In this document: one piece after another, positions 6,006 to 63,396 of the stretch
Numbering within the stretch: position 1 is the stretch's first letter
Layout: every line of letters begins with the position of its first letter
NCBI GenBank assembly: GCA_963789335.1
Contig: CAWBKH010000002.1
Coordinates: forward strand, 985,355 to 1,049,354
Length of the DNA: 64,000 bases
From: an uncultured Verrucomicrobiae bacterium
GTDB lineage: Bacteria > Verrucomicrobiota > Verrucomicrobiia > Limisphaerales > UBA11358
Direction of reading: 5' to 3'
Notes under the pieces: generated by a model
What the model was told of the DNA's origin: nothing
Seen by the model: only the letters and a program-made list of their open reading frames with translations
The model's database searches: none
Position numbers and translations under genes: made by a program

Positions 6006-7316
6006 ATGGATTTGATTCAGCGCTCCATTCAACTTGGCTGGCAACTGCGCGTCTTTTTCACCGAAGACGTTTTCGCCCCCGCCAATCTGGTTTTGAAAGA
6101 GGTGCTGGCCGATGGCGCACCGCGCAAAGTCTTGCTTGTTCTCGATGAAGGTTTGACCCGCCATCACCGGAACGCCGGATTGCCTTCAAAAATTGCCTCT
6201 TATTTTCAAACGCATAGCGCCGCACTTCAATTGGTTTGTCCGCCGCTCATCATTCCCGGTGGAGAAGCTGCCAAAAATTCCAGCGCGTGCGTTTCGCAAA
6301 TTCACTTGGCCATCAACCAATTCCACATTGACCGGCATTCCTACTTGATTGCCGTTGGTGGCGGCGCGTTGCTGGACGTCGCCGGCTTTTCCGCCGCCAC
6401 CGCGCACCGCGGCGTGCGCCACGTGCGCATCCCTACGACCGTTTTGAGCCAGGCTGATTCCGGCGTCGGTGTCAAGAATGGCCTCAATGCCTTCGGCAAA
6501 AAGAATTTCCTCGGCACGTTCGCGCCGCCGCACGCGGTCATCAACGATTTCAACTTGCTCGCCACGTTGGCAGCGCGCGACAAATGCGCTGGCTACGTTG
6601 AAGCCGTGAAAGTCGCCTGCATCCGCGACAAACATTTCTTTGACGAACTCGAACGCGAGGCGGAGAAACTGGTGGCATTTGAGCCTGATGCGATGAAGCG
6701 GCTCATTTATCGCTCCGCCGAATTGCATCTGCACCACATCGCCGCCAACGGCGACCCATTTGAGCGTGGCTCGGCGCGTCCGCTCGATTTCGGCCATTGG
6801 GCGGCGCACAAGCTGGAACAGCTCTCCAACTTTCAGATCCGTCACGGCGAGGCCGTCGCCATAGGTATCGCAATTGATGTGCTTTACTCGCGCAACGTCG
6901 GCCTGCTCGATGCTGTGTCCGCCGAACGCATTCTGGCCTTGCTGCAAAAACTGGAACTGCCACTGTCCACTTGCGATATGACCCGGCGAAGTTATCCCGA
7001 AGGCTCGCCGTTCGTCGAAAAGGTCGCGGACGCCTTTGACAAACTGGATTTGCAGAAATTGGACGCTGAAGTAAAAGTGCGTCCAGACAAGTTCCCGGAG
7101 GCGATGAGTGAACTGGATGAGTTATTCAGGAGCGCCCCGCCGTTCCGTCTCGAACTGGTGAATGGCCTGGAAGAGTTTCGCGAACACCTTGGAGGTGAAT
7201 TAACCATCACATTGTTGAAAAACATCGGCGAAGGTGTGGAAGTGCATGCGATGAATCCGGCCCAAATTGACGAAGCGGTCGAGGAACTGTGGAAGCGCTG
7301 CCACCAGCAGGTCTGA
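6006..7316 (+). CDS. sugar-phosphate cyclase / 3-dehydroquinate-synthase-like superfamily protein (probably not canonical AroB)
   Basis: GGGALLDVAGFSAATAHRGVRHVRIPTTVLSQADSGVGVKNGLN matches the DHQS-fold nucleotide and metal-binding region. C-terminal GLEEFREHLGG is present. The protein is about 75 aa longer than typical AroB. Start is ATG 6006 (or TTG 5997). Confidence 0.7.
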   Translation: MDLIQRSIQLGWQLRVFFTEDVFAPANLVLKEVLADGAPRKVLLVLDEGLTRHHRNAGLPSKIASYFQTHSAALQLVCPPLIIPGGEAAKNSSACVSQIHLAINQFHIDRHSYLIAVGGGALLDVAGFSAATAHRGVRHVRIPTTVLSQADSGVGVKNGLNAFGKKNFLGTFAPPHAVINDFNLLATLAARDKCAGYVEAVKVACIRDKHFFDELEREAEKLVAFEPDAMKRLIYRSAELHLHHIAANGDPFERGSARPLDFGHWAAHKLEQLSNFQIRHGEAVAIGIAIDVLYSRNVGLLDAVSAERILALLQKLELPLSTCDMTRRSYPEGSPFVEKVADAFDKLDLQKLDAEVKVRPDKFPEAMSELDELFRSAPPFRLELVNGLEEFREHLGGELTITLLKNIGEGVEVHAMNPAQIDEAVEELWKRCHQQV

Positions 7317-7317
7317 T

Positions 7318-8799
7318 ATGAACCGCCTTGCCGTTATCAACGTTGTCGGCTTGGTCGAAGCGCTCATCAGCGAACACACGCCGCGCATCGCGGAATTTCG
7401 CCAGCACGGCGCGCTGGCCCAAATCGTGCCGGCATTCCCGGCGGTCACCTGCCCCGCGCAATCGAATTACCTCACCGGCAAATTGCCGTCGCAGCACGGC
7501 GTCGTCGGCAACGGCTGGTACGATCGCGAGCTGTCTGAAGTCCAATTCTGGAAACAATCGAACCATCTGGTGCAAAGCCCAAAAATCTGGGATGAACTCC
7601 GAAAGCAATCTGAATTAGTAAATCGTAAATCATCAATCGTAAATCTGTTCTGGTGGTTCAACATGTATTCGAGCGTGGATTATTCCCTCACGCCGCGCCC
7701 GATGTATCCTGCCGATGGCCGGAAGGTTTTCGATGTATATTCCCGGCCGTATTCAATTCGCACGGAAATCAAGCGCGACCTCGGCGAATTCCCGTTCTTC
7801 GGTTTCTGGGGCCCAGCGGCAGGGATCAAATCCCCGCAAGGTTCCGCTGATTGCGCGACGCGCTGGATTGCCGAGTCCGCGAAGTGGATTGAAAACAAAT
7901 ATCAACCGACGCTAAACCTGATTTATCTGCCACATCTCGATTACAATTTGCAGCGATATGGACCGTTCGGAGTTCCGCCTTCAGGCGGCAAGGTTGAAGC
8001 GCATCCACCCGCGAACCGCCTGAAGGCGGAACTCCAAACCAAAATCAATCCCGCCATCATTCCTGACCTGCACGCGATTGATGCCATCGTCGGCGACCTG
8101 ATTAATTTCTTCAACAAATGCGGCGTGCAAGTCGTGTTGCTCTCCGAATACGGCATCACGAACGTGGACACGCCGGTTCATCTCAACCGGATTTTCCGCG
8201 AGCAAGGCTGGCTGGCGGTGAAGGATGAACTCGGCCTGGAAATTCTCGACGCAGGCGCAAGCAAGGTTTTCGCCGTAACGGATCATCAGGTTGCACATAT
8301 TTACCTCAATGATGCGTCGCTGGAAAAATCTGTGCGCGAACTGCTGGAGAAGACCGAAGGCGTGGAAAGCGTTTTAGGCAAAACGGAAAAAATCACGGCG
8401 GGTATTGACCATCCGCGCGCCGGTGATTTGATGGTCGTGGCGAAGGAAAACGCGTGGTTCACCTATTATTACTGGCTGGACAACGTCCGCGCGCCGGATT
8501 TCGCGCGGACGGTGGACATCCACCGCAAGCCGGGCTTCGACCCGGTGGAACTGTTTCTCGACCCGACGATTCCGCTGCCGAAATTGAAAATCGCCTGGCG
8601 CTTGCTGCAAAAGAAACTTGGTTTCCGAATGTTGATGGACGTGGTCCCGCTCGACGCAACGCTCGTGAAAGGCTCGCACGGCCGGCGACCGATGGACAAA
8701 ATAGACTGGCCGGTGTTCATTACAGAACGACCGGAAACGTTGGACACAAAGCAGATTGAATCAACGGATGTGTTTCACGTCTTACAGCAGCATCTTTAA
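7318..8799 (+). CDS. alkaline-phosphatase-superfamily enzyme (nucleotide pyrophosphatase/phosphodiesterase-like)
   Basis: N-terminal VINVVGL...P, FPAVTCPAQSNYLTGKLPSQHGVVGNGW (metal/nucleophile-region motif of type I phosphodiesterase/NPP) and SEYG. The ATG at 7318 follows the upstream stop (TGATATG). Confidence 0.7.
   Translation: MNRLAVINVVGLVEALISEHTPRIAEFRQHGALAQIVPAFPAVTCPAQSNYLTGKLPSQHGVVGNGWYDRELSEVQFWKQSNHLVQSPKIWDELRKQSELVNRKSSIVNLFWWFNMYSSVDYSLTPRPMYPADGRKVFDVYSRPYSIRTEIKRDLGEFPFFGFWGPAAGIKSPQGSADCATRWIAESAKWIENKYQPTLNLIYLPHLDYNLQRYGPFGVPPSGGKVEAHPPANRLKAELQTKINPAIIPDLHAIDAIVGDLINFFNKCGVQVVLLSEYGITNVDTPVHLNRIFREQGWLAVKDELGLEILDAGASKVFAVTDHQVAHIYLNDASLEKSVRELLEKTEGVESVLGKTEKITAGIDHPRAGDLMVVAKENAWFTYYYWLDNVRAPDFARTVDIHRKPGFDPVELFLDPTIPLPKLKIAWRLLQKKLGFRMLMDVVPLDATLVKGSHGRRPMDKIDWPVFITERPETLDTKQIESTDVFHVLQQHL
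7604..7645 (+). repeat. tandem heptamer array (GCAATCT GAATTAG TAAATCG TAAATCA TCAATCG TAAATCT) inside the phosphatase CDS
   Basis: Period-7 repetition read directly; it is translated as ...QSELVNRKSSIVN... Confidence 0.7.
7969..8035. repeat. palindromic element: GGAGTTCCGCCTTCAGGCGG - 27 nt - CCGCCTGAAGGCGGAACTCC, inside the CDS
   Basis: Perfect 20-bp inverted repeat read directly; translated in-frame as GVPPSGGKVEAHPPANRLKAEL. Confidence 0.85.
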
Positions 8800-12110: not shown

Positions 12111-13829
12111 TTATGACGGCGACTCAACTGCCTCCTCGTTCGGTTCTTCAGGCGGCGTAACGAGGGATTCGGCCGGGGCGGGTTCGGCCGCCGCAATGGA
12201 TTCTGCGGTTGGCGACGGAGCCTCGGCTGGCGCTTGAATTTCCGGCGCAGGTTCGGGCGGCGTTTGAACTTCCGTGCCCGGCACAACGGTGGTCTCAGCT
12301 TGCCGTCCAAGCTCCGTTGCCGACGCGGTTTCAGCTTCGGCCGCCGTTTTTTTCTCCGGTTTCGGCGGCCGGGGCGCGGGTTTCTTGGCGGTTTCCAGCC
12401 GCCCGTCGGCGAACTCAATGACGTGGCCTTGATGCACCAGCCAGTGCAAATCGGCGATGATGGCGTTTTGCTCCGCTGTCGGTTCGGCGGTTGGAGTGCC
12501 GCTCTTAGGCGGTTCTTGGGCACCGACCGCCTGAAGGCGGGACTCCGAACCCGGTGCCTCCGCTTCAGGTTTGATTTCGATAACCGCCGGCTGCGGCGTC
12601 GGCGCGAGCGTTTCGATCAACTGCCGCCGGCTGCATTTCGGATGCGCGTTAACGTGGGCGATGATGCGCTTGATGCTTTCCGACACCGGCGTGGTTTCGA
12701 GGTCGAGAAACTGCGGGCGCGCGACGGAAACGTGGGTGAAAGTCTTGTTGACCTTGAAAAACTGCAGGCCATGCGTGGCCAGTTGCCGGCTGAGTTCGGT
12801 GGCCAGTTGCAGCGGAAAATGTCTTTGCTGCTCCCATTCCATGCGCACCAACCGTTGCAATTCGCGGCTGCGCAAATTGCGGCTCGGCACGCCGACGACC
12901 GTGTGCGACTCGACGGATTTGATGATCGTCTCCTTGTGGACGGCGCGGAAATGTTTTCCCACCTCTTCCAGACTCGGCAGTTTGAGCGGTTCGGGCACAT
13001 TAAGCACCACGTATTCGGTCTTGAAACTCTGTTCCTCGACCCACTTCTTGACGACCGCCTCGTCCTTCACGATTTTCACGCGCGCCTTGAAGGCGTCGAA
13101 CGGCATTCGGGCGAACCGCTCGACGTGCAATTTGCGCAACCGGTTCTGGTAATCGTGATGGTTCGGCGGGCCGAGAATCACGCCGCTCATGCCGCATTGT
13201 GCGACAAACGTGTAGGTGCCCTTCGGCGGCTCGGTGGCCGTGCGTTCGGCCTGATAAAACGTGGTGAAATGGCTTTTCAGGACGTGCGCCACTGCCTCGT
13301 CCTCGCTCAGCCACGGCGTGTCGTCGAGCGCACACACAAACAGCGGTTGCGCAACGGCGCCTTCGGGCTTTTTCTTCACCGCCAACCGGACGGCATAGCG
13401 TTCCGGCTTTTGCAAAACGAGCTGGGCAATCTGGAAAAGCGGATACGCCCGTCCGGTCATCTTGATCTGGCGCGCGAGCGATTCAACGCCCCTCTCGTCC
13501 GGCAGAAAAACCACGGCGATTTCCGGCAGCGGCGCAGGCGGTTCGCGGTGTTCGCGTTCGCTCCGGTCATCGCGCCGGTCGAAACCCCTTTTACGATCGC
13601 GGTCGCCAGATTTCGGGCCGGAGCGCGGCGGACGGGGACCGCGACGTTCGCCGAATGATTCACCGCGCGGCTCTCCGCGACGGCCTTCACGCCGGCGATC
13701 GCCGCGTTCCGCTGGCTCGCCGGCAAACTTTTCGTAGCGATTGGCCTCCGGCTTTTCTTGAGCCCACGCGGGCTGGAACAAATTTTCCAGATCCAAATCC
13801 ATGTCGGGAATGCTGCTCATGGGAAACAA
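12111..13829 (-). CDS. hypothetical protein with Arg-rich N-terminal and Pro/Ala/Glu-rich C-terminal low-complexity regions
   Basis: 572-aa ORF. The N-terminus reads RGDRRREGRRGEPRGESFGERRGPRPP...DRDRKRGFDRRDDRSEREHRE. The central roughly 330 aa are non-repetitive. It sits between recA and the DEAD-box helicase on the same strand. Confidence 0.7.
   Translation of the reverse strand: MFPMSSIPDMDLDLENLFQPAWAQEKPEANRYEKFAGEPAERGDRRREGRRGEPRGESFGERRGPRPPRSGPKSGDRDRKRGFDRRDDRSEREHREPPAPLPEIAVVFLPDERGVESLARQIKMTGRAYPLFQIAQLVLQKPERYAVRLAVKKKPEGAVAQPLFVCALDDTPWLSEDEAVAHVLKSHFTTFYQAERTATEPPKGTYTFVAQCGMSGVILGPPNHHDYQNRLRKLHVERFARMPFDAFKARVKIVKDEAVVKKWVEEQSFKTEYVVLNVPEPLKLPSLEEVGKHFRAVHKETIIKSVESHTVVGVPSRNLRSRELQRLVRMEWEQQRHFPLQLATELSRQLATHGLQFFKVNKTFTHVSVARPQFLDLETTPVSESIKRIIAHVNAHPKCSRRQLIETLAPTPQPAVIEIKPEAEAPGSESRLQAVGAQEPPKSGTPTAEPTAEQNAIIADLHWLVHQGHVIEFADGRLETAKKPAPRPPKPEKKTAAEAETASATELGRQAETTVVPGTEVQTPPEPAPEIQAPAEAPSPTAESIAAAEPAPAESLVTPPEEPNEEAVESPS
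12493..12546. repeat. palindromic element GGAGTGCCGCTCTTAGGCGG - 14 nt - CCGCCTGAAGGCGGGACTCC inside the CDS
   Basis: Same arm sequences as 7969-8035; translated on the minus strand as ESRLQAVGAQEPPKSGTP. Confidence 0.8.
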
Positions 13830-17242: not shown

Positions 17243-18565
17243 ATGGTTCACATCGAATCGGAAAAACTATTTGCCGAGGCACTAAAATTCATTCCCGGCG
17301 GCGTGAACTCACCGGTGCGCGCCTTTCGCGCCGTCGGCGGCCAGCCGTTCTTTGTCAATGAAGCCAAGGGCGCGCACGTCTGGGACGTGGACGGCAACGA
17401 ATATATTGATTACGTCTGCACCTGGGGCCCGGCGATTCTCGGCCACGCGCATCCGAAAATCGTTTCCGCCGTCAAAGCCGCCGCCGACCGCGGCACGAGC
17501 TTCGGCATTCCCAATCCATTTGAAGTGACGATGGCAAGGCTGATTTGCTCACTCGTGCCGAGCGTGCAAAAGGTGCGCATGACCAATTCCGGCACCGAGG
17601 CGTGCATGAGCGCCATCCGCCTCGCGCGCGGTTTTACCCGCCGCGACAAAATCATCAAGTTCGACGGCTGTTATCACGGCCACGCGGATTCGCTGCTCGT
17701 CAAAGCCGGCTCCGGCGCGCTGACGTTTGGTAATCCCGACAGCGCGGGCGTGCCGGCGGCGTTCACGCAGCACACCATCGTTTTGCCGTTCAACGATATT
17801 GACGCAGTGAAGGCCGTGTTCGATGCGAATAAAAATCAAATCGCTGGAATCATTGTCGAGCCGGTGCCGGGCAATGCCGGAGTTTATCTGCCAAAACCGG
17901 GCTACTTGGAATTTCTCGGTGAAATCACCAGTGCCAACGGCGCGCTGTTAATTTTCGATGAGGTAATGACGGGCTTCCGGCTTGCGCCCGGCGGCGCGCA
18001 GGAACGATTCGGGATCGCGCCGGATTTGACGTGCTTCGGTAAAATCATCGGCGGTGGCCTGCCGGTGGGCGCGTTTGGCGGGCGCGCGGACATCATGGAT
18101 TTGCTCGCGCCGCTGGGACCGGTTTATCAAGCCGGCACGTTAAGCGGCAATCCACTCGCGATGGCAGCGGGCATCGCGGCGTTGGAGGAACTGAACGTTG
18201 GTAGGGACGCTGCGCTGCGGCGTCCGGACAGCGCAGCACGCTGTCCCTACCAACAGCTTGAAGAACTCGGCGCGCAACTGGAAGCCGGCCTGAAAGACGC
18301 CGCGAAGGCCGCAAACGTTCCGGTCCAATTTAACCGCTGCGGTTCGATGTTTTGCGCATACTTTACGAGCGAGCCGGTTCACAATCTGGCCGATGCGATG
18401 AAAAGCGACCGTGCGCGGTTCGCCAAATTCTTTCATGGGATGGTTGATGCAGGTGTTTACCTCGCGCCATCGCAATTCGAGGCCGGCTTTATTTCCACCG
18501 CCCATGCAGAGACGGACATTGATCAAACGGTGAAAGCAGCGGCCACCGTTTTGCGGAGGCTGTAA
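17243..18565 (+). CDS. hemL: glutamate-1-semialdehyde 2,1-aminomutase
   Basis: Class III aminotransferase motifs, [13 protein letters not shown], and FDEVMTGFR...FGKIIGGG with the PLP lysine context. Confidence 0.95.
18200..18251 (+). repeat. 52-nt palindromic element GGTAGGGAC...GTCCCTACC inside hemL
   Basis: Terminal 9-bp inverted repeat plus inner GCTGCGCTG/CAGCGCAGC stem. 43/52 nt are identical, without gaps, to 62589-62640. Confidence 0.85.
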
Positions 18566-22084: not shown

Positions 22085-22179
22085 AAGGATCGCGTTGACA
22101 GCCTTTTAATTACGAGGAAGGAGATTTCGTTTCAATACTTTACTGACTTCAATGGCAGCCGTTTAGCCGGACTTTGCAT

Positions 22180-22194
22180 AGCCTCACAAATGTA
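22180..22194 (-). promoter_or_regulatory. conserved 15-mer TACATTTGTGAGGCT (copy 1, oriented toward the GH2 gene)
   Basis: Exact 15/15 match with 27473-27487 and 29318-29332; about 95 nt upstream of the GH2 ATG. Confidence 0.6.
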
Positions 22195-22258
22195 TAGTTT
22201 TGATGCCTTGGCGAATTTCCTGATGCAACAATACATTTCGCAAGTGTAACATCGGCCC

Positions 22259-27406: not shown

Positions 27407-27472
27407 GATAGTCGTTGAGCTAAAACAAGTTACACTATTTTGACTAGACTAAAGGCAGGCCTCGCAATACTC

Positions 27473-27487
27473 TACATTTGTGAGGCT
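27473..27487 (+). promoter_or_regulatory. conserved 15-mer TACATTTGTGAGGCT (copy 2)
   Basis: Exact repeat; 61 nt upstream of the PEP-CTERM gene ATG. Confidence 0.6.
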
Positions 27488-27548
27488 AGGCAATTTCAGG
27501 GGTTGGGGCATAATCAAAGCAATTAGCAAACCCGTAACTCAATAATCT

Positions 27549-28466: not shown

Positions 28467-29267
28467 ATGCCTCCAATATCGCAACAGATGTCCCGTAACC
28501 ACCAGCCCAAAGCGTTCCCGGCTTTCGCTCTGATTGAATTATTGGTGGTGATAGCCATTATTGCCGTCTTGGCAGCCTTGCTCCTGCCTGCGCTGTCGGC
28601 GGCCAAATTCCGCGCCAAGTGCATTAGTTGCACGTCGAACTACCGTCAGTGGGGCATTGTGGCCAACATGTATGCCGGCGACAACTCGAGTGGGATGCTG
28701 CCATCTTTCTCCCTGCCCGGCAACGTCAGCGGCCATAACGCGTGGGATGTATCCTTGGACATGGTTCCGGGGTTGGCGCCTTATGGTCTGACCATACCGA
28801 TGTGGTTTTGTCCGGTGCGGCCCAATGAGTATGATGCAGCCAATGCTCAATTCAGCCACTACTACAATCGCCCGATTTCCAATCTGACGGATCTGAATCG
28901 GGAATTGCAATTACGTAATGGCAATACCGGTAGCTTCGTGGTCTTATACCATGCCTGGTGGGTGCCGCGCGCGCTCGGCGATCCCCGGTTCCAGTTTCCT
29001 TCACCCGATTTGGCAGGCACGTACTGTCGCACCACCAATGGCTGGCCAAGCCGGGTGACAGATCGGATCACCAGCACACAACCGATCATCAGCGATTATT
29101 GTTACGCGTCGGGCTTTAATACGAATACGGCGGCAATGCTCGCGGGTCATTCCATTGGGAACAGGGTGGTCAACGTCAACCTGGCGTTCGCCGATGGCCA
29201 CGTGGAGACCCATCAGCGTTCCATCATCCAATGGCAGTACACCGGCGTGGACTCAGCCTTTTATTGA
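28467..29267 (+). CDS. pseudopilin-like protein (prepilin-type N-terminal cleavage/methylation domain)
   Basis: [29 protein letters not shown] and C-terminal [10 protein letters not shown], as in the H-X9-DG/DUF1559-like family. Confidence 0.8.
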
Positions 29268-32275: not shown

Positions 32276-33094
32276 ATGACGACCGAAAAGCGATTGAAAT
32301 GTTCTGCAACACTGTTGGGGTTCACCCTCATTGAATTGCTGGTGGTGATCGCAATTATCGCCATACTTGCAGCGATGCTGTTGCCGGCGCTGGCCGCGGC
32401 CAAAAAGCGCGGCCAAATGGCTGTTGATATCAGCAATAACCGGCAAATTTTGCTGGCAATGACCATGTATGCCGGAGACTACAACGATCGTATGCCCCAG
32501 CCCGGCTGGGGTACGTTTGATGATTGCTGGGCGTCCTCGTCGAATATAAACAATCATCTTGGCGGGAGCTATAGCCTTTATCAGCAAAATTACACTAATC
32601 AATTGGCGGACTTCCAAAATGGCCAGCTCTATCCCTACCTCAAGGATCCAAAGATCATGCTGTCTCCGGCTGATGTACAGAATCAGCAATTCTACCTGCG
32701 TCCAATCTATATTACCAGCTACGTTTGGAATGGTGCGGTCATCGGGTACGATAACGGGGCTTTCCCCACTTCCAGTGGCCACGTGCCCGTCCCCTTCAAA
32801 CTGGGCCAGTTCAAGTCAAGCGCGATCCTGATCTGGGAAGCCGACGAGACACAACCTTTCTTTTTTAATGACTTTGCCAATTATCCTGACCAAGGGATTT
32901 CAGGCCGTTATGGCAAGGGGGCGATAGTCGGATACTTCGATGGCAGTGCCGGGCGGATAAGTATCGGTGACTTTTCAGCCTGGGCTGGCTGCGCGAACGG
33001 TGTCTGGGACGTACAAGGTGGATCACGATGGCGATTTGTAAAAAATCTTCCCAATCAACTGTGGTGCAGCCCCATCAATAACGGTGCCCCGTGA
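32276..33094 (+). CDS. pseudopilin-like protein (prepilin-type N-terminal cleavage/methylation domain), second copy
   Basis: [32 protein letters not shown] and C-terminal VGYFDGSAG. Confidence 0.8.
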   Translation: MTTEKRLKCSATLLGFTLIELLVVIAIIAILAAMLLPALAAAKKRGQMAVDISNNRQILLAMTMYAGDYNDRMPQPGWGTFDDCWASSSNINNHLGGSYSLYQQNYTNQLADFQNGQLYPYLKDPKIMLSPADVQNQQFYLRPIYITSYVWNGAVIGYDNGAFPTSSGHVPVPFKLGQFKSSAILIWEADETQPFFFNDFANYPDQGISGRYGKGAIVGYFDGSAGRISIGDFSAWAGCANGVWDVQGGSRWRFVKNLPNQLWCSPINNGAP

Positions 33095-38054: not shown

Positions 38055-38078
38055 GTAGCAGCCGCCGTGAGTCGGCTC
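38055..38078 (+). repeat. REP-like unit GTAGCAGCCGCCGTGAGTCGGCTC
   Basis: GTAG followed by an AGCCG/CGGCT hairpin. One of four related copies in the window. Confidence 0.75.
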
Positions 38079-38084
38079 TGAATT

Positions 38085-38150
38085 TTGTAGGAGTCGAGGT
38101 AACGAGACTGATTTTTGAAAGTCAGAGACTCCTTACGTCGTCTCCTACAA
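38085..38150. repeat. 66-nt imperfect palindrome bounded by TTGTAGGAG ... CTCCTACAA
   Basis: Terminal 9-bp perfect inverted repeat; the inner arms are partially complementary. Confidence 0.7.
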
Positions 38151-38260
38151 TCCGCCTGCATCCGCTTTCATGCGATTTCAGCGCGACCAGTCTGATTTCC
38201 GTCATCGCCCAGCCTCGTGCGTAAGCCACGCGACCCGTCACCCCTGCGGCATTCGGATTT
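38151..38260 (+). repeat. direct-repeat unit F1 (TCCGCCTGCATC...), with a 30-nt insertion relative to F2
   Basis: About 85% identity (hand count: 10 mismatches in 68 nt) to 38486-38565 outside the insertion. Confidence 0.75.
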
Positions 38261-38289
38261 CGATCGGTTCACCACTTCCCTCATCCCGG

Positions 38290-38415
38290 CCTTCTCCCCA
38301 AGGAGAAGGAGAATCCTCCGCCGTCTGCTTGAAAATTCGTGTGGCTGGTTTTGCCGGACGACCATCCGCCAAACCAGAACCGGACGCCTGCTATTTTCTC
38401 TCCTGGGGGAGAGGA
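38290..38415. repeat. hairpin-rich composite element (TCTCCCCAAGGAGA ... CTGGTTT-N19-AAACCAG ... TCTCCTGGGGGAGA)
   Basis: Two self-complementary end modules in inverted orientation flank an inner 7-bp stem. Confidence 0.6.
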
Positions 38416-38485
38416 AACAGGTGAGGGCGAGCGTCAAAACAAAATTCATTCCGACAATCGTTCATCCCAAAATGAAGAGTTCCCG

Positions 38486-38565
38486 TCCGCCTGCATCTGA
38501 TTTCCGTCTTCGCCAAGCTTCGTGCGTGAGCCACGCGTCCCGTTGCCCCTGCGGAATACGGCTTT
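38486..38565 (+). repeat. direct-repeat unit F2
   Basis: See 38151-38260. Confidence 0.75.
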
Positions 38566-38597
38566 GGCGTGCGCGGACATATCCGCTTTCATTTTGC

Positions 38598-38672
38598 GTA
38601 GCAGCGGATGTGAGTCCGCTCCATCTAAAAATCACCCCGCAAAATAATGAGCCGACTCACGTCGGCTGCTAC
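38598..38672. repeat. REPIN-like doublet: GTAGCAGCGGATGTGAGTCCGCTC (+) - 27 nt - inverted GTAGCAGCCGACGTGAGTCGGCTC (-)
   Basis: Two 24-nt GTAG-hairpin units in inverted orientation, ending 3 nt from the manA stop. Confidence 0.75.
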
Positions 38673-51740: not shown

Positions 51741-52642
51741 AAAAACGAAATCTGATAACCATCCTTACCGCCGCAGTGCTGGTCGTGATTTTCGTGCTGC
51801 TGCTGTTTACCTTTCAAGTCCGGCAATCCCAAGTGGCCGTCGTTACGACGTTCGGCAAGACGACCGGCGTTTATCATCCCGGATTGCATTTGCGCTGGCC
51901 GTGGCCGGTTCAGCAGGTTTACAAATTTGACCAGCGCATTCAGACCTTCTCGGACAAATTCGAAGAATGCCTCACCAAGGACAGCATTACTTTGTTGACC
52001 AGCGTCTATGTGGGTTGGAAAATCTCCAATCCAACGAACTTTCTCAACAGCTTTCCCAATGGCTCCATTGAAGCGGCGCAAAGCCAGCTTCAAAGCATCT
52101 TGACCAGCGCCAAACTGTCCGAGGTGGGCAGCAACACGCTCTCCGACTTTGTGAATGCAGACCCGAAGCAATTGAGGTTCGACGAGATTCAAAGCAACAT
52201 TGAAGAGATGGTCCAATCCCAGTTGCAGACCAACGACTACGGCATTCAAGTCGAATTTCTGGGCATTGAAAAGCTCGGGCTGCCCGAAGGCGTCACCGAG
52301 GCCGTTTTTACCCGGATGAAATCGGAGCGCCAGGTGCTCATTAGTCAGGCGCAAAACGAAGGCAAGGCGGAGGCCATCAAAATCAAGGCCAATGCCGACC
52401 GTCAGGCCAACGAAACACTGGCCAATGCCGAGGCCCAAGCCAAGCAGATTGAAGGCCAGGGCGTGGCGGAAGCCGCCAAGACGCTGCCCATCTTTCAGGA
52501 AAACCCCGGGCTGGCGGTTTTCATGCTGCGGATCAAGGCGCTCCAGGACTCGCTCAACCAAAAGTCCGTCCTGATCTTTGACCAGCGCACCCCGCCGTTT
52601 GATTTGTTCAGCGGCACTTGGACCAATCTGCCGGCAAAATGA
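51737..52642 (+). CDS. SPFH/band-7 protein (HflC-like)
   Basis: Single N-terminal TM helix, FQVRQSQVAVVTTFGK...GLHLRWPWPVQQVYKFDQR, and a coiled KAEAIKIKANADRQANE region. ATGA overlap with the upstream gene. Confidence 0.75.
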   Translation: MKKRNLITILTAAVLVVIFVLLLFTFQVRQSQVAVVTTFGKTTGVYHPGLHLRWPWPVQQVYKFDQRIQTFSDKFEECLTKDSITLLTSVYVGWKISNPTNFLNSFPNGSIEAAQSQLQSILTSAKLSEVGSNTLSDFVNADPKQLRFDEIQSNIEEMVQSQLQTNDYGIQVEFLGIEKLGLPEGVTEAVFTRMKSERQVLISQAQNEGKAEAIKIKANADRQANETLANAEAQAKQIEGQGVAEAAKTLPIFQENPGLAVFMLRIKALQDSLNQKSVLIFDQRTPPFDLFSGTWTNLPAK

Positions 52643-52649
52643 ATTTGCA

Positions 52650-52786
52650 GACGTGAAACATCGAACATCAAACATCGAACACCTGCCGCGACGGTGCGCG
52701 AGCACGGCGAGTCAAACGCCGAATGAAGCTGGCGCTCGCCACATTTTCGTTCGATGTTCGGTGTTCGATGTCCGGTGTTCGATGTT
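52650..52786. repeat. inverted pair of heptamer arrays (AACATCG x4 at 52657-52684; CGATGTT/CGGTGTT x5 at 52752-52786) around a ~60-nt GC-rich spacer
   Basis: Read directly. The arms are complementary over about 28 nt with 3 mismatches, one of which is G-U compatible. Confidence 0.8.
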
Positions 52787-52896
52787 TTTCCATTCCATCC
52801 CATGAGCGACGAGCACGATCATCCTCACGATCACGAGCACGAACCTCGCGCGCCGAGCCGGCGCCGGTAGCCCAGGACGATGCCGGTTCGCAGGCC

Positions 52897-60199: not shown

Positions 60200-61954
60200 G
60201 TGACGAAAAAACATTCCAGTGGCCGCCCGCTGCGCGTCGGCCTGATTTCGCTCGGCTGCGCCAAAAATCTCGTGGACGCCGAAATCATGCTCGGTTCGCT
60301 CCTTAAAAGCGGCGTGGAAATCACCAATGACGCCGCGCAGGCCGACGCCGTCATCGTCAACACCTGCTCGTTCATTGACTTTGCGCAGGAGGAGAGCGTG
60401 GACACCATCCTCGAATCCGCCGAGGTTCGCGAAGCGAAAAATCGCGGCCAAAGCCTGATTGTTTCCGGCTGCCTGCCGCAGCGGTTCCGCGACGAATTGC
60501 CAAAACTCCTGCCCGAAGTGGATGCGTTCATGGGCATTGACCAGGTCGCGCAGGTTTCGGAAATTGTCCGCAAGGCTGTGGCAAGTCGGGCAGCAAAAAT
60601 CGAGAAACATCGAACAGCAAACATTGAACGCCGAAAATCCAAGGAAAAAATCACCGGCCAGTTTGCAGAATTGGAGAAAAGCCGCACTGCCGGCGAACGT
60701 GAAAAATCCGAGTCCGTTCGCGGCGCGGAAAAATTTGGCAAAACAAAAACTGTTGTGGCTCCGTCCTCAACTCTCGACCCTCGGTCCTCGACCATTCTGA
60801 ATGTCACCCAACGCCCGACGTTCATCCCCGACTTTGCCACGCCGCGCTTCCGACTGACGCCGAGACATTTCGCCTACGTCAAAATCGCCGAGGGCTGCAA
60901 CCATCCGTGCAGCTTTTGCATCATCCCGCGGATGCGCGGTTCGCATCGCAGCCGGCAACAAACGGACATTGTGGCCGAAGCGAAGGCGTTGATTGCTGAT
61001 GGCGTGAAGGAAATCAATCTGATTTCACAGGACTCGACTTACTACGGATTGGATTTGCGCCCAAACCAATCGCGCGCGATTTCGTCACCGGAGAAATTTT
61101 CCGCCGCGGCCAAATCGCTTGCCGCCGATGCCACGACCATTTGCACACTGCTGCGTGAATTGAATGCGCTGCCCGGCGATTTCTGGATTCGCCTGCTGTA
61201 CACGCATCCGGCGCATTGGACGGATGAACTCATCCAGACCATCGCCGAATGCCCGAAGGTGGCGCGCTACGTGGACATTCCGCTCCAGCACATCCAGGAA
61301 AACATGCTCGAACGGATGCGCCGCGAAACTTCACAACAATACATCGTGGATTTAATTAAGAAAATCCGCGCAGGCGTGCCGGGCATCGCGCTGCGGACGA
61401 CCTTCATCGTCGGTTTTCCCGGTGAAACTGAGGCGAGCTTCAACACGCTCCTCGATTTCATCTGCGGAACAAAATTCGAGCGGCTCGGCGTGTTTACTTA
61501 TTCCAAGGAAGACGGTACCCGCGCCGGCGCCATGGCCGGGCACATTCCCGATAAAATCAAAAAACACCGACGCGAACTCGCCATGGCCGAGCAGCACAAA
61601 ATCGCCCGGCAGATTTCTGAATCCTTCGTCGGCCGCGAAATCAAAGTGCTCATCGAAGGCAAGGCGGACGCAAAACAACTGCAAACCGCGAACGTCAGTT
61701 CCTGGGAACACGGCTTCGTCCGCGAATCCGAAACTCTCAACCCTCAATTTTCAACCCTCAACTATTTGATTGGCCGCAGCGAGGCAGATGCGCCGGACAT
61801 TGACGGTCGGGTTTATGTTCGCGGCGAACTTCCGATTGGCGAATTTGCCCGTGTCAAAATCGTCGGCCACACCGATTACGATTTGATGGCCGAAACAACA
61901 AGAATTGGCGAAACAAGTTCGACCGACATGACAAATCGAGGCAAGTCCAGATGA
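60200..61954 (+). CDS. rimO: ribosomal protein S12 methylthiotransferase RimO (with repeat-derived insertions)
   Basis: LGCAKNLVDAEIMLG, radical-SAM CNHPCSFCIIP, and TRAM-like C-terminus ...GRSEADAPDIDGRVYV. GTG start. Confidence 0.85.
   Translation: MTKKHSSGRPLRVGLISLGCAKNLVDAEIMLGSLLKSGVEITNDAAQADAVIVNTCSFIDFAQEESVDTILESAEVREAKNRGQSLIVSGCLPQRFRDELPKLLPEVDAFMGIDQVAQVSEIVRKAVASRAAKIEKHRTANIERRKSKEKITGQFAELEKSRTAGEREKSESVRGAEKFGKTKTVVAPSSTLDPRSSTILNVTQRPTFIPDFATPRFRLTPRHFAYVKIAEGCNHPCSFCIIPRMRGSHRSRQQTDIVAEAKALIADGVKEINLISQDSTYYGLDLRPNQSRAISSPEKFSAAAKSLAADATTICTLLRELNALPGDFWIRLLYTHPAHWTDELIQTIAECPKVARYVDIPLQHIQENMLERMRRETSQQYIVDLIKKIRAGVPGIALRTTFIVGFPGETEASFNTLLDFICGTKFERLGVFTYSKEDGTRAGAMAGHIPDKIKKHRRELAMAEQHKIARQISESFVGREIKVLIEGKADAKQLQTANVSSWEHGFVRESETLNPQFSTLNYLIGRSEADAPDIDGRVYVRGELPIGEFARVKIVGHTDYDLMAETTRIGETSSTDMTNRGKSR
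60606..60640 (+). repeat. heptamer array AACATCG AACAGCA AACATTG AACGCCG AAAATCC inside rimO
   Basis: Same unit and same translated frame (KHRTANIER) as the intergenic array at 52657-52684 (KHRTSNIEH). Confidence 0.75.
60759..60793 (+). repeat. heptamer array CTCCGTC CTCAACT CTCGACC CTCGGTC CTCGACC inside rimO
   Basis: Period-7 repetition read directly; translated as APSSTLDPRSST. Confidence 0.75.
61736..61763 (+). repeat. heptamer array CTCAACC CTCAATT TTCAACC CTCAACT inside rimO
   Basis: Period-7 repetition read directly; translated as TLNPQFSTLN. Confidence 0.75.
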
Positions 61955-63396
61955 GCAAACCGCCAAAATCGCAATGGGACTTCGGCGAATTGTTTCCGAC
62001 GGAAGCAACGCGGAAAGTTTTGTCGGTCTCGGAATTGACGGCACAGGTCAAGCAGCTGCTGGAAAAACAGGTTGGCTCGGTGTGGGTGAGCGGTGAGATC
62101 ACCAATTTGCGGACGCAATCTTCGGGGCACCTGTATTTCACGCTCAAAGACGCCGGAGCGCAGTTGAGTTGCGTGCTGTTCCGGGGCGAGGCGGTCAGGA
62201 ACCGCAGCGTGTTGCAGGACGGCCAGAAGGTTCTCCTGCAAGGCGACGTGACGGTTTATGAAGCGCGCGGACAATATCAGCTCATCGTGCGCGCGGTGGA
62301 GTTGCAGGGTGTGGGCGCGCTGCAAATCGCCTTTGAGAAGCTCAAACAAAAGCTCGCGGCGGAAGGATTGTTTGCAACGGAACAGAAACGTCCGTTGCCT
62401 GAATATCCACAACGCGTCGGCCTAGTGACGTCGCCCACCGGCGCGGCGATTCGCGATGTGCTGCATGTCCTGCAACGGCGGAATCCGGCGCTGGAAATCA
62501 TTCTTGCGCCGTGCCGCGTGCAAGGCGACGGCGCGGCGGAGGAAATCGCAGCCGCCATCCGGCTGCTGAATGAGTGGCATGCATCACAGGTAGGGTCGTC
62601 GCGCTGCAACGACCGGACGGCGCAGCGCGCCGTCCCTACCGAAAATGGATTGGACTTGATTTTAGTAACTCGCGGCGGTGGCTCGCTGGAGGATTTATGG
62701 GCGTTCAACGAAGAAGCCGTGGCGCGGGCGATTTTTGAATCGGCAGTTCCGGTGATGTCGGCGGTAGGACACGAGATTGATTTTACCGTCAGCGACTTTG
62801 TCGCGGACGTCCGAGCTGCCACGCCGAGCGCCGCCGCGGAAATCATCACCGAGGGCGTGTTCGCCAGCCGTGAGTTTGTGGCCGAAGCGCCGGGCCTGCT
62901 GCGGCGAAGGGTCCGCCAACGGCTGGAAAGTGCCACCGCGGAATTCGAGCAACTCAAAGCGCGCTTGACCCGATCCCATCCGCGTCGGCAGTTGAATGAA
63001 TTTCTGCAACGGCTGGACGACCTGCAAAACGGTTTGCTGCGCTGTGCGAAGCAGGGAACAAAAGAACGGCAGGTAGCTTGGCACAATCTGGCAACGCGGC
63101 TCCTGCGTGTGCGTCCGACGCAGTTGTTGAAGCAGCGGCAAGAACTTTTGAAAACGAGCCGGCATCGGTTGCGGGAGCTGGCGTTGGTTAGCCTGCGGAA
63201 TTGGCGGAATCGTTTTGGTGCAACGGAAGCCAAATTGCGTTTGCTCAGTCCGGGGCAGGTTTTAGCGCGTGGTTATTCCATCACCACGGACGCCGCAACC
63301 GGAACGGTTTTGCGCGAGGCTGCTGAAGTGGAAACCGGTCAGCGTTTGAAAACGCGGCTAAAAACTGGCGAAATCTTCAGCCGGACCGAGAAGTGA
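61951..63396 (+). CDS. xseA: exodeoxyribonuclease VII large subunit
   Basis: [10 protein letters not shown]...GHLYFTLKD (OB fold) and [16 protein letters not shown]. ATGA overlap with rimO. Confidence 0.9.
   Translation: [481 protein letters not shown]
62589..62640 (+). repeat. 52-nt palindromic element GGTAGGGTC...GTCCCTACC inside xseA
   Basis: 43/52 identical to 18200-18251. It is translated in a different frame ([17 protein letters not shown]). Confidence 0.85.

Follow-up and report, generated by a model that had tools for sequence, protein, structure and literature searches.

What is a 52-nucleotide (nt) palindrome doing, in frame, within the gene of an essential enzyme, where did it come from, and what has kept it there? 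The question is raised by hemL, the gene for glutamate-1-semialdehyde 2,1-aminomutase, in a 64-kb stretch of an uncultured Verrucomicrobiae genome; this whole stretch of 64,000 nt is referred to below as the window, and all positions are counted within it. We consider it very probable (about 85%) that the element is a REPIN, that is, an inverted doublet of repetitive extragenic palindromic (REP) units, of the kind associated with REP-associated tyrosine transposases (RAYTs) and belonging to the GTAG superfamily defined by Di Nocera, De Gregorio and Rocco (2013, BMC Genomics 14:522, PMC3733652), and that it sits in a permissive linker, has long been fixed, is vertically inherited, and is held near its consensus by a process acting at the DNA level.

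Two abutting hairpins within hemL

The element and its host gene comprise the following features.

17243..18565, + strand: hemL, the host gene, glutamate-1-semialdehyde 2,1-aminomutase, 440 amino acids (aa); PF00202, match to 2gsa
18197..18254, no strand: extended palindrome with an outer stem, GTTGGTAGGG/CCCTACCAAC, that makes a Y of the two hairpins (RNA fold)
18200..18251, no strand: REPIN of two GTAG REP units, inverted, with zero spacer, in frame in hemL and read as 17 residues (sequence, pattern scan, folding)
18200..18225, + strand: left REP unit, G-GTAG, stem GGACGCTGC, loop GCT, stem GCGGCGTCC; one T.G mismatch; 'GCC' stem variant
18226..18251, - strand: right REP unit, inverted orientation; 'AGC' stem variant; one loop-proximal mismatch

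The open reading frame (ORF) 17243-18565 is assigned to HemL by Pfam PF00202 and by an end-to-end match with PDB entry 2gsa from Synechococcus (E = 1e-157), and in the alignment with 2gsa the insert separates a helix that ends in ...AALEEL from one that begins with YQQLEELG. Read directly from the window, positions 18200-18251 are GGTAGGGACGCTGCGCTGCGGCGTCCGGACAGCGCAGCACGCTGTCCCTACC, letter for letter the palindrome that had been quoted when this DNA was first described from its letters and reading frames (the sequence-only reading). The 9-nt terminal arms given there (GGTAGGGAC/GTCCCTACC) are present as described; what was taken for a single inner stem is instead a pair of abutting 9-bp hairpins. 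Each 26-nt half consists of G-GTAG, a 9-bp stem, a 3-nt GCT loop and the return arm, and the two halves abut with their GTAG ends outward.

A second copy in xseA

Scanning the window for GGTAGGG-N38-CCCTACC with up to two mismatches returns exactly two places, 18200-18251 and 62589-62640, against 0.06 in shuffled sequence; no further whole or half copies were found in the 64 kb. The second copy lies, again in frame, in the gene for the large subunit of exodeoxyribonuclease VII.

61951..63396, + strand: xseA, the host gene, exodeoxyribonuclease VII large subunit, 481 aa; PF02601
62589..62640, no strand: second REPIN, a member of this family with the stem variants T-GTC and GGC; it is in frame in xseA and is read, in the other open frame, as VGSSRCNDRTAQRAVPT (pattern scan, sequence)

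The two copies agree at 43 of 52 positions without gaps, just as had been noted from the letters, and their nine differences all fall at stem positions, most of them matched by a complementary change in the partner arm. GGTAG stands ahead of the stem in all four half-units, and each copy has one or two mismatches to the family consensus. Folded as single-stranded DNA, the hemL and xseA copies reach -21.1 and -19.8 kcal/mol, far better than shuffles (z-scores -5.2 and -3.8 for these two, and -3.8 to -5.9 overall); as RNA, the hemL copy with its flanks folds into a Y of -41.7 kcal/mol. No direct duplication was found flanking either copy, the bordering trinucleotides being GTT/AAC at hemL and CAG/GAA at xseA. 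Rfam covariance models gave best hits of E = 0.5-0.6 for the element, far under their gathering scores and hence no family match, and for the whole window a single tRNA. An intrinsic terminator was considered and rejected, as there is no T-run after the hairpins.

A family dispersed through the Verrucomicrobiota

A half-unit pattern accommodating each of the four halves in the window, GTAGGGWCRNNGYGCTGCNNYGWCC, was run against a single genome per species; by our own arithmetic, which assumes uniform base composition, about 9 hits are expected by chance. The scan returned at least 120 loci, nearly all in metagenome-assembled genomes (MAGs) of Verrucomicrobiota (Verrucomicrobiae, Chthoniobacterales, Udaeobacter and 'Spartobacteria'); the hosts of the family are uncultured soil and peat members of the phylum. 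The matches listed, to which the following counts refer, hold 184 units, arranged as 50 doublets and 84 singles. Every one of the 50 doublets has its GTAG ends outward; 15 have no spacer, 7 a spacer of 2 nt and 28 one of 23-113 nt, such that 22 have the 0-2 nt spacing of the window copies. The GTAG itself is fixed by the pattern, and all 50 doublets have the flanking G/C, to which the pattern does not extend. Although complementarity was no requirement of the scan, the variable stem pairs 3, 5 and 6 are Watson-Crick in 184, 182 and 178 of the 184 units, with two or three types of pair at each. Six stem variants dominate, and the partners in a doublet nearly always differ from each other. The GCC/AGC heterodimer seen in hemL also occurs between genes, at loci L132, L145 and L147.

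Of 119 listed instances, 27 (23%) fall within an open frame that extends for 60 codons or more to either side, compared with 66% of random positions in the same loci, and the family is therefore mainly extragenic. Copies within genes are nonetheless not confined to the window: the proposal that such repeats enter essential enzymes in frame is borne out by further housekeeping genes identified by Pfam, among them LeuRS and MnmA, each occupied at the same site in two MAGs, together with IlvD, HemA, RsmB, an MqnC/CofH-like radical SAM enzyme and a malectin-domain protein. The family combines a short stem-loop (26 nt per unit, within the 20-40 bp typical of REPs), a 5' GTAG, dispersal, inverted doublets and compensatory stems, which are attributes of GTAG-type REPs and REPINs. 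The sequence-only reading's suggestion of a REPIN-like family thus stands, with GTAG 5' of the hairpin, GTAG-outward inverted doublets and many loci across the phylum.

RAYT genes bracketed by the same units

Proteins recognized by the NCBIfam RAYT model are bracketed by units of this family at five loci, in five related genomes (L135, L093, L201, L202 and L203). The model NF047646, 'REP-associated tyrosine transposase' (cutoff 80), gives 104.7 bits for an L135 ORF of 149 aa that contains an HVH motif and YILANPVRAGLV and has zero-spacer doublets of the family on both sides. Doublets likewise flank the gene on both sides at L201, L202 and L203, and upstream only at L093, a locus that ends within the gene. 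Wherever the 3' end of the gene is visible (L135 and L201-L203), its stop codon is the TAG of a GGTAGGG. RAYT homologues adjoin REPs at L093 and also at L185 (degraded) and L088 (a fragment). A database search with the RAYT brought about 988 relatives, several of which are named RayT by JGI, one of these coming from Candidatus Udaeobacter; three relatives on long contigs share the gene order LytB, DoxX, DLH, RAYT, each with family doublets on both sides. These assignments are founded on NCBIfam scores and flanking repeats.

With this association, the idea that the hemL palindrome arose by chance, or is a lineage-specific loop unrelated to mobile repeats, loses practically all credence. GC-rich composition is all that speaks for it, and it is refuted by two copies where 0.06 are expected, by the 184 units listed at the at least 120 loci elsewhere, by the covariation of the stems across the family, and by the RAYTs.

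Two other transposase-like genes were seen. In L205, a close syntenic relative of the window, a 115-aa IS200-like Y1_Tnp ORF (949-1296), apparently truncated or frameshifted, lies just after the phosphodiesterase gene. We rejected it as the cognate RAYT: it is an IS200-like pseudogene flanked by unrelated hairpins of its own (TTGTCCC..GGGACAA; AGCCCG..CGGGT), and it has no counterpart in the window. In L160 (4491-7259, - strand; Candidatus Udaeobacter MAG DASYSX010000046.1), a RecG-like ORF of 922 aa contains a complete RAYT-like domain fused in frame in mid-ORF (NF047646, 82.9 bits, cutoff 80; PF01797), located between the helicase motifs and flanked by repeat-like peptides; we consider a transposase domain within an intact repair helicase odd.

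Empty sites and the reading frame

The alignment of orthologues shows sites without the element for HemL and likewise for XseA. Close HemL orthologues with an empty site read EEL-xxGDAY-xxLExLG, with six residues where the window has 19, and HemL accordingly has a net gain of 13 codons both against these orthologues and against 2gsa, in whose alignment the gaps total 13 residues, all of them at the insert. At the DNA level the empty hemL site is GGCGACGCTTACCA (in L007, GCC GGC GAC GCT TAC CAG, compared with GTT GGT AGG GAC GCT ... CCC TAC CAA in the window), and the element takes the position of a 13-nt ancestral stretch, GGCGACGCTTACC, which itself starts with GG and ends with TACC, for a gain of 39 nt. 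Empty XseA orthologues read LLNEF-NLQLILVTRGGGS. These alignments show the hemL and xseA copies to be insertions and not ancestral loops.

Since 52 is not a multiple of three, how the frame was kept deserves attention. The copies are read in different frames (GGT AGG GAC in hemL, G GTA GGG TCG in xseA); on either strand two of the three frames are free of stops, and the third holds the TAG of GTAG. The first proposal, an insertion that leaves the frame unbroken, is right in that both copies are in frame; a 52-nt insertion by itself, however, cannot preserve the frame. Removal at the RNA level, by a mini-intron or similar device, was also considered and rejected, as excision of 52 nt shifts the frame and Rfam gives no match.

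Inheritance and slow divergence of the hemL copy

The sequence-only reading had held that the same peptide in HemL orthologues free of the repeat family would speak against an insertion. Orthologues with this peptide formally exist; yet they carry the same DNA element at the same place, so what they share is an inherited insertion and not an unrelated loop. We regard both the hemL and the xseA insertions as old and vertically inherited because orthologues of 74-91% identity carry them. For hemL we compared the DNA of four genes with the window's type of doublet, termed type A below (the window, L207, L208 and L209): all four have the same GCC/AGC heterodimer at the same codon, which points to one origin.

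Among these four genes the element differs at 4-10% of nucleotides and the rest of hemL at 16-24%; at third codon positions the values are 6-18% and 34-45%. Relative to the remainder of hemL, divergence of the element is thus 2-6 times slower, third positions included, and L208 retains a perfect consensus doublet at 22% gene divergence. A comparable picture is seen in the proteins of 17 type-A orthologues, where mean pairwise identity is 0.857 for the 17 REP-encoded residues (a figure somewhat inflated, as the definition of the type-A peptide dropped 3 of 20 sequences, which tells to that extent against us), 0.844 for the HemL core, and 0.327 for two adjacent loop residues.

These data bear on the possibility that the element is a neutral fossil, a single ancient selfish insertion that is immobile, unconstrained and decaying in a permissive loop, as are most Rickettsia palindromic elements. 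Signs of decay exist, namely the one or two consensus mismatches in each window copy and the change of the left GTAG to GCAG in L207; in addition, repeat families interchange at this site (see below), so no particular peptide is needed, and there is no RAYT nearby. A decaying passenger, however, should not evolve 2-6 times more slowly than its host gene at third positions too, nor should its residues be conserved like the enzyme core while two neighbors in the same loop are nearly random, nor should a perfect doublet persist as in L208. Because the hemL element is slower than the gene around it, we think that it is kept by a process at the DNA level and does not decay freely, and we judge the fossil explanation unlikely.

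Reuse of the HemL and XseA loops by other repeats

The best 120 HemL hits, 82-91% identical, include a few orthologues with an empty site and show at least seven different fillers at the site of the element.

A, 17 residues: GTAG doublet of the type found in the window
B, GRDARPARPTDGSASRPY: related GTAG doublet
C, SVGRGVPTAPRRAGDSPPY: a further GTAG doublet
D, NSPKSKVQSPKSKR: peptide only; a lysine-rich filler in L003, NGKAENGKRKAENKY, reads as a GGAAAGCGGAAAA-type tandem repeat
E, SRSRREEAHS...LLTS: peptide only; the intergenic GTAG-type hairpins of the window at 38055-38672 include sequence that would encode LLTSSPT
F, SEGRALRVP...TRVTRPS: palindrome with a 21-bp stem
G, ...SAPTDVGGYY: peptide only

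The loop tolerates from 6 to 41 residues, and types A and C are of equal length (19 aa). It is the one internal site of HemL that varies in length, and 117 of 121 sequences carry a filler there. Every filler type is represented among HemLs whose core is no more than about 10% diverged from the query, and type A is also present in HemLs 15-18% diverged; in a neighbor-joining (NJ) tree of the HemL core, which is star-like and has no bootstrap values, the types are not grouped into clean clades. A right boundary, CCC TAC CA, is common to types A, B and C, whose left boundaries differ. One sequence, P0087, is a chimera with a C-type left unit, into which a 30-nt insert is nested, and an A-type right unit. 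The stem defects peculiar to the window copy recur as the same unit variants at unrelated intergenic loci and are absent from L207. The XseA site behaves in the same way, with at least six fillers. XseA has a second length-variable site at residues 15-18 (about 61993-62004 in the window), where 52 of 121 orthologues, the window not among them, have a PPSPGSSGATGPTE...-type insert of 10-30 aa.

Such turnover suggests the main rival to a single old insertion: that type-A copies are young and independent, having come by recurrent site-directed insertion or replacement. In its fuller form, several GTAG REPIN families would be inserted or exchanged site-specifically at GG...TACC(A) landing pads or into each other's hairpins, and either ongoing replacement by the RAYT or gene conversion would hold their sequences close to consensus. 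This reading is prompted by the seven or more fillers at one site, the chimeric and nested forms, the shared right boundary, and an element divergence well below the synonymous one. It is also consistent with the low divergence of the element in diverged hosts, with the range of types within about 10% core divergence and of type A at 15-18%, with the unclean clades, with the filling of the only variable HemL site in 117 of 121 sequences, and with the GG, GACGC and TACCA that the empty site shares with the element ends. Several points tell against it: one insertion is the simplest account of four type-A copies with the same heterodimer at the same codon; the NJ tree is star-like and unbootstrapped, and recombination among hemL alleles would scramble the types as well; neither a RAYT nor an intergenic donor is seen in about 130 kb of the lineage; and a filter for permissive sites alone predicts reuse of the sole tolerant loop. 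We therefore take recurrent insertion, whether as independent young copies or as exchange among several families at landing pads, as a tentative alternative, rather doubtful though the strongest of those considered.

The same fillers bear on a domesticated function, in which either the Y-shaped hairpin in the mRNA would make translation pause at a domain boundary or serve as a signal for RNase or stability, or else the loop would have a role in the protein, with selection for that role retaining the insert. The strong RNA structure (-41.7 kcal/mol), the location at an inter-helix or domain linker, conservation at the DNA level, and the equal length of the type A and C loops would all fit. Close relatives with intact enzymes, however, have unrelated fillers, including a simple tandem repeat, or an empty site, and for this reason we hold a domesticated role to be improbable, more so than a fossil; moreover, the few stem mismatches show no sense-strand G.U bias, Rfam has no match, and doublets of this type also lie between genes, in L132, L145 and L147.

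Favored explanation and the points that weigh against it

We favor a vertically inherited, RAYT-type REPIN, for which the following course of events may be proposed. Judging by the biochemistry of IS200/IS605 elements and TnpA-REP, the RAYT (an HUH/Y1 enzyme) would recognize GTAG plus hairpin on single-stranded DNA and move or copy doublets. One doublet would have entered the inter-helix linker of HemL and another a linker of XseA, and HemL would thereby have gained an Arg/Ala/Pro/Asp-rich loop at a tolerant site, with an effect on the protein that is most likely neutral. The hemL copy would since have been kept near consensus by constraint on the hairpin or by homogenization against other copies.

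Several points weigh against this explanation. Searches of the window and of about 130 kb of DNA of its closest relatives showed neither a RAYT nor an intergenic copy of the window's family, and activity in this lineage is therefore conjectural; the statement of the sequence-only reading about 'this genome' must be qualified likewise, as it is based on two copies that both lie in genes, and the 64 kb contains no RAYT. The loci that do bear a RAYT may belong to other orders (Chthoniobacterales, Udaeobacter), and transposition by the RAYT of this family is proposed by analogy with other systems. Cut-and-paste of a 52-nt unit would by itself break the frame, and the exact insertion event at hemL is beyond reconstruction because the element ends overlap sequence already present in empty alleles. 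A surface-loop location is suggested by the 2gsa alignment and by the variation in length from 6 to 41 aa; an AlphaFold2 model of HemL, built on a 53-sequence alignment, reached a mean predicted local distance difference test (pLDDT) score of 39.7, because all 53 aligned sequences are more than 82% identical, and was left unused. As to the slow divergence, Fisher p values run from 0.0007 to 0.13 over six pairwise tests that share four sequences and so are not independent, one pair being non-significant (p = 0.13).

Other repeats in the window

Several further repeats lie in the window. In the type I phosphodiesterase ORF 7267-8799 (PF01663), two inverted copies of a repeat from another family, GTTCGGAGTTCCGCCTTCAGGCGG / CCGCCTGAAGGCGGAACTCCAAAC, lie in frame at 7965-8039 and are read as FGVPPSGGKVEAHPPANRLKAELQ; a third copy of this repeat is at 12527-12550, and a peptide resembling the phosphodiesterase insert (...KLKLELQ) fills the XseA hotspot in other lineages. 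A 584-aa RimO/MiaB-like ORF (60200-61954), in which the interval from the UPF0004 to the radical SAM domain is unusually long, has short tandem or inverted repeats of the AAACATCGAAC type in frame at about 60587-60648, read ...KIEKHRTANIERRKSKE..., with related repeats at 52638-52794.

Between genes, a stretch of roughly 630 bp at 38055-38672 is full of other GTAG-type hairpin repeats (GTAGCAGCCGCCGTGAGTCGGCTC, GTAGGAGTCGAGG...CTCCTTACGTCGTCTCCTAC, GTAGCAGCGGATGTGAGTCCGCTC), and the source genome therefore has intergenic GTAG REP clusters of other families. The stretch includes a 70-nt direct repeat, 86% identical (38191-38260 and 38496-38565), and L194 shares 148 nt with 38110-38257 at 90% identity. 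One sequence in the stretch would encode LLTSSPT, which resembles the E-type filler seen in HemL and XseA of other lineages. Elsewhere there is a 36-nt inverted repeat whose arms, 83% complementary, lie 5.3 kb from each other (22167-22202 / 27465-27500; CCGGACTTTGCATAGCCTCACAAATGTATAGTTTTG), and a 91-nt direct repeat, 76% identical (28524-28614 / 32321-32411), which looks like the N-terminal prepilin-type signal (type II secretion/pseudopilin) of two paralogues and is ordinary.

Significance

For annotation, peptides such as the 17-residue insert of HemL and VGSSRCDDRTAQRAVPT in Verrucomicrobiota proteins are to be read as repeat-derived and not as functional motifs. The reuse of one loop by many families within about 10% protein divergence is a natural experiment on insertion tolerance and on the choice of targets by REPINs, and an intragenic REPIN that diverges more slowly than the synonymous sites around it, with the host gene as an internal clock, offers a clean test of whether REPINs are maintained or merely tolerated. 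If the landing-pad reading were true, essential enzymes across a radiating clade of soil Verrucomicrobiota would have cassette-like hypervariable loops.

Comparison with known systems

The closest systems are the GTAG REPs of Di Nocera and colleagues (PMC3733652), whose superfamily includes sub-families that have alternative complementary bases in their stems, heterodimers whose units lie 1-2 bp apart, and REPtrons. That study reports REPs inside genes 'in several species', with in-frame GTAG REP dimers most abundant in Opitutus terrae; it suggests that intragenic REPs sit in flexible linkers, and it gives one case, recB of Xanthomonas, of different REPs at about the same site. The O. terrae families GTAG-17 to GTAG-20 resemble ours in phylum, in the GTAG 5' of a 6-9 bp stem, in alternative complementary stem bases, in heterodimers with spacers of 0-2 bp, in RAYT genes flanked by REPs, and in genic copies of roughly 20-30 aa that are in frame and are proposed to lie in linkers or loops. 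They differ in the sequence of the unit and in their peptides (VGPALAAG..., GTGVPPV, VAGGGDP); GTAGGGAC and the peptide AVPT are absent from the supplementary tables of that study. Its table of intragenic REPs does not include hemL ('semialdehyde' has 0 hits), and its 'exodeoxyribonuclease' rows are exonuclease V subunits, not xseA; unlike the present case, it describes no multi-family turnover at one loop and no intragenic copy that evolves more slowly than synonymous sites. In the literature searched, whose coverage is incomplete such that absence is weak evidence, we found no description of this REP sequence, of multi-family loop turnover or of slower-than-synonymous divergence.

The REPIN-RAYT systems of Pseudomonas and E. 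coli (Bertels and Rainey 2011, PMC3116915; Nunvar 2013, PMC3686654) share the inverted doublets, the single-copy RAYT flanked by REPs, its syntenic vertical inheritance, and the long persistence of the sequences; a single-copy, vertically inherited RAYT and long persistence are the picture given by Bertels and Rainey there and in later preprints. The window copies have no spacer and are in frame within essential genes. The published REPINs, by contrast, are said to be extragenic and to have units tens of bp apart, and they belong to one species complex, whereas the family of the window spans several orders of a phylum.

The Rickettsia palindromic elements (Ogata et al. 2000, cited in PMC3733652) are likewise palindromes in frame in functional genes, at surface or linker positions, an analogy of outcome only. 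They have no sequence relationship to our family and are largely of the CGTC type or longer (about 100-150 bp); no transposase is known for them, and they are limited to Rickettsia; the window's family consists of GTAG units in Verrucomicrobiota MAGs, and the intragenic repeats of R. conorii are counted as CGTC-type in PMC3733652. MITEs (miniature transposable elements with inverted repeats) derived from insertion sequences, such as the QMITEs of Coxiella (PMC5896051; reviewed in PMC10969869), are also small and non-autonomous and can extend ORFs in frame. They differ in having terminal inverted repeats of 15-30 bp, target-site duplications and DDE-type parents, whereas the present copies are GTAG-hairpin units with a Y1/HUH partner, have termini of 7-10 bp that are part of the REP units, and lack flanking direct duplications. 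In-frame GTAG REP dimers as a class are thus already described (PMC3733652), and to this class the window adds a new family and two new host genes, hemL and xseA.

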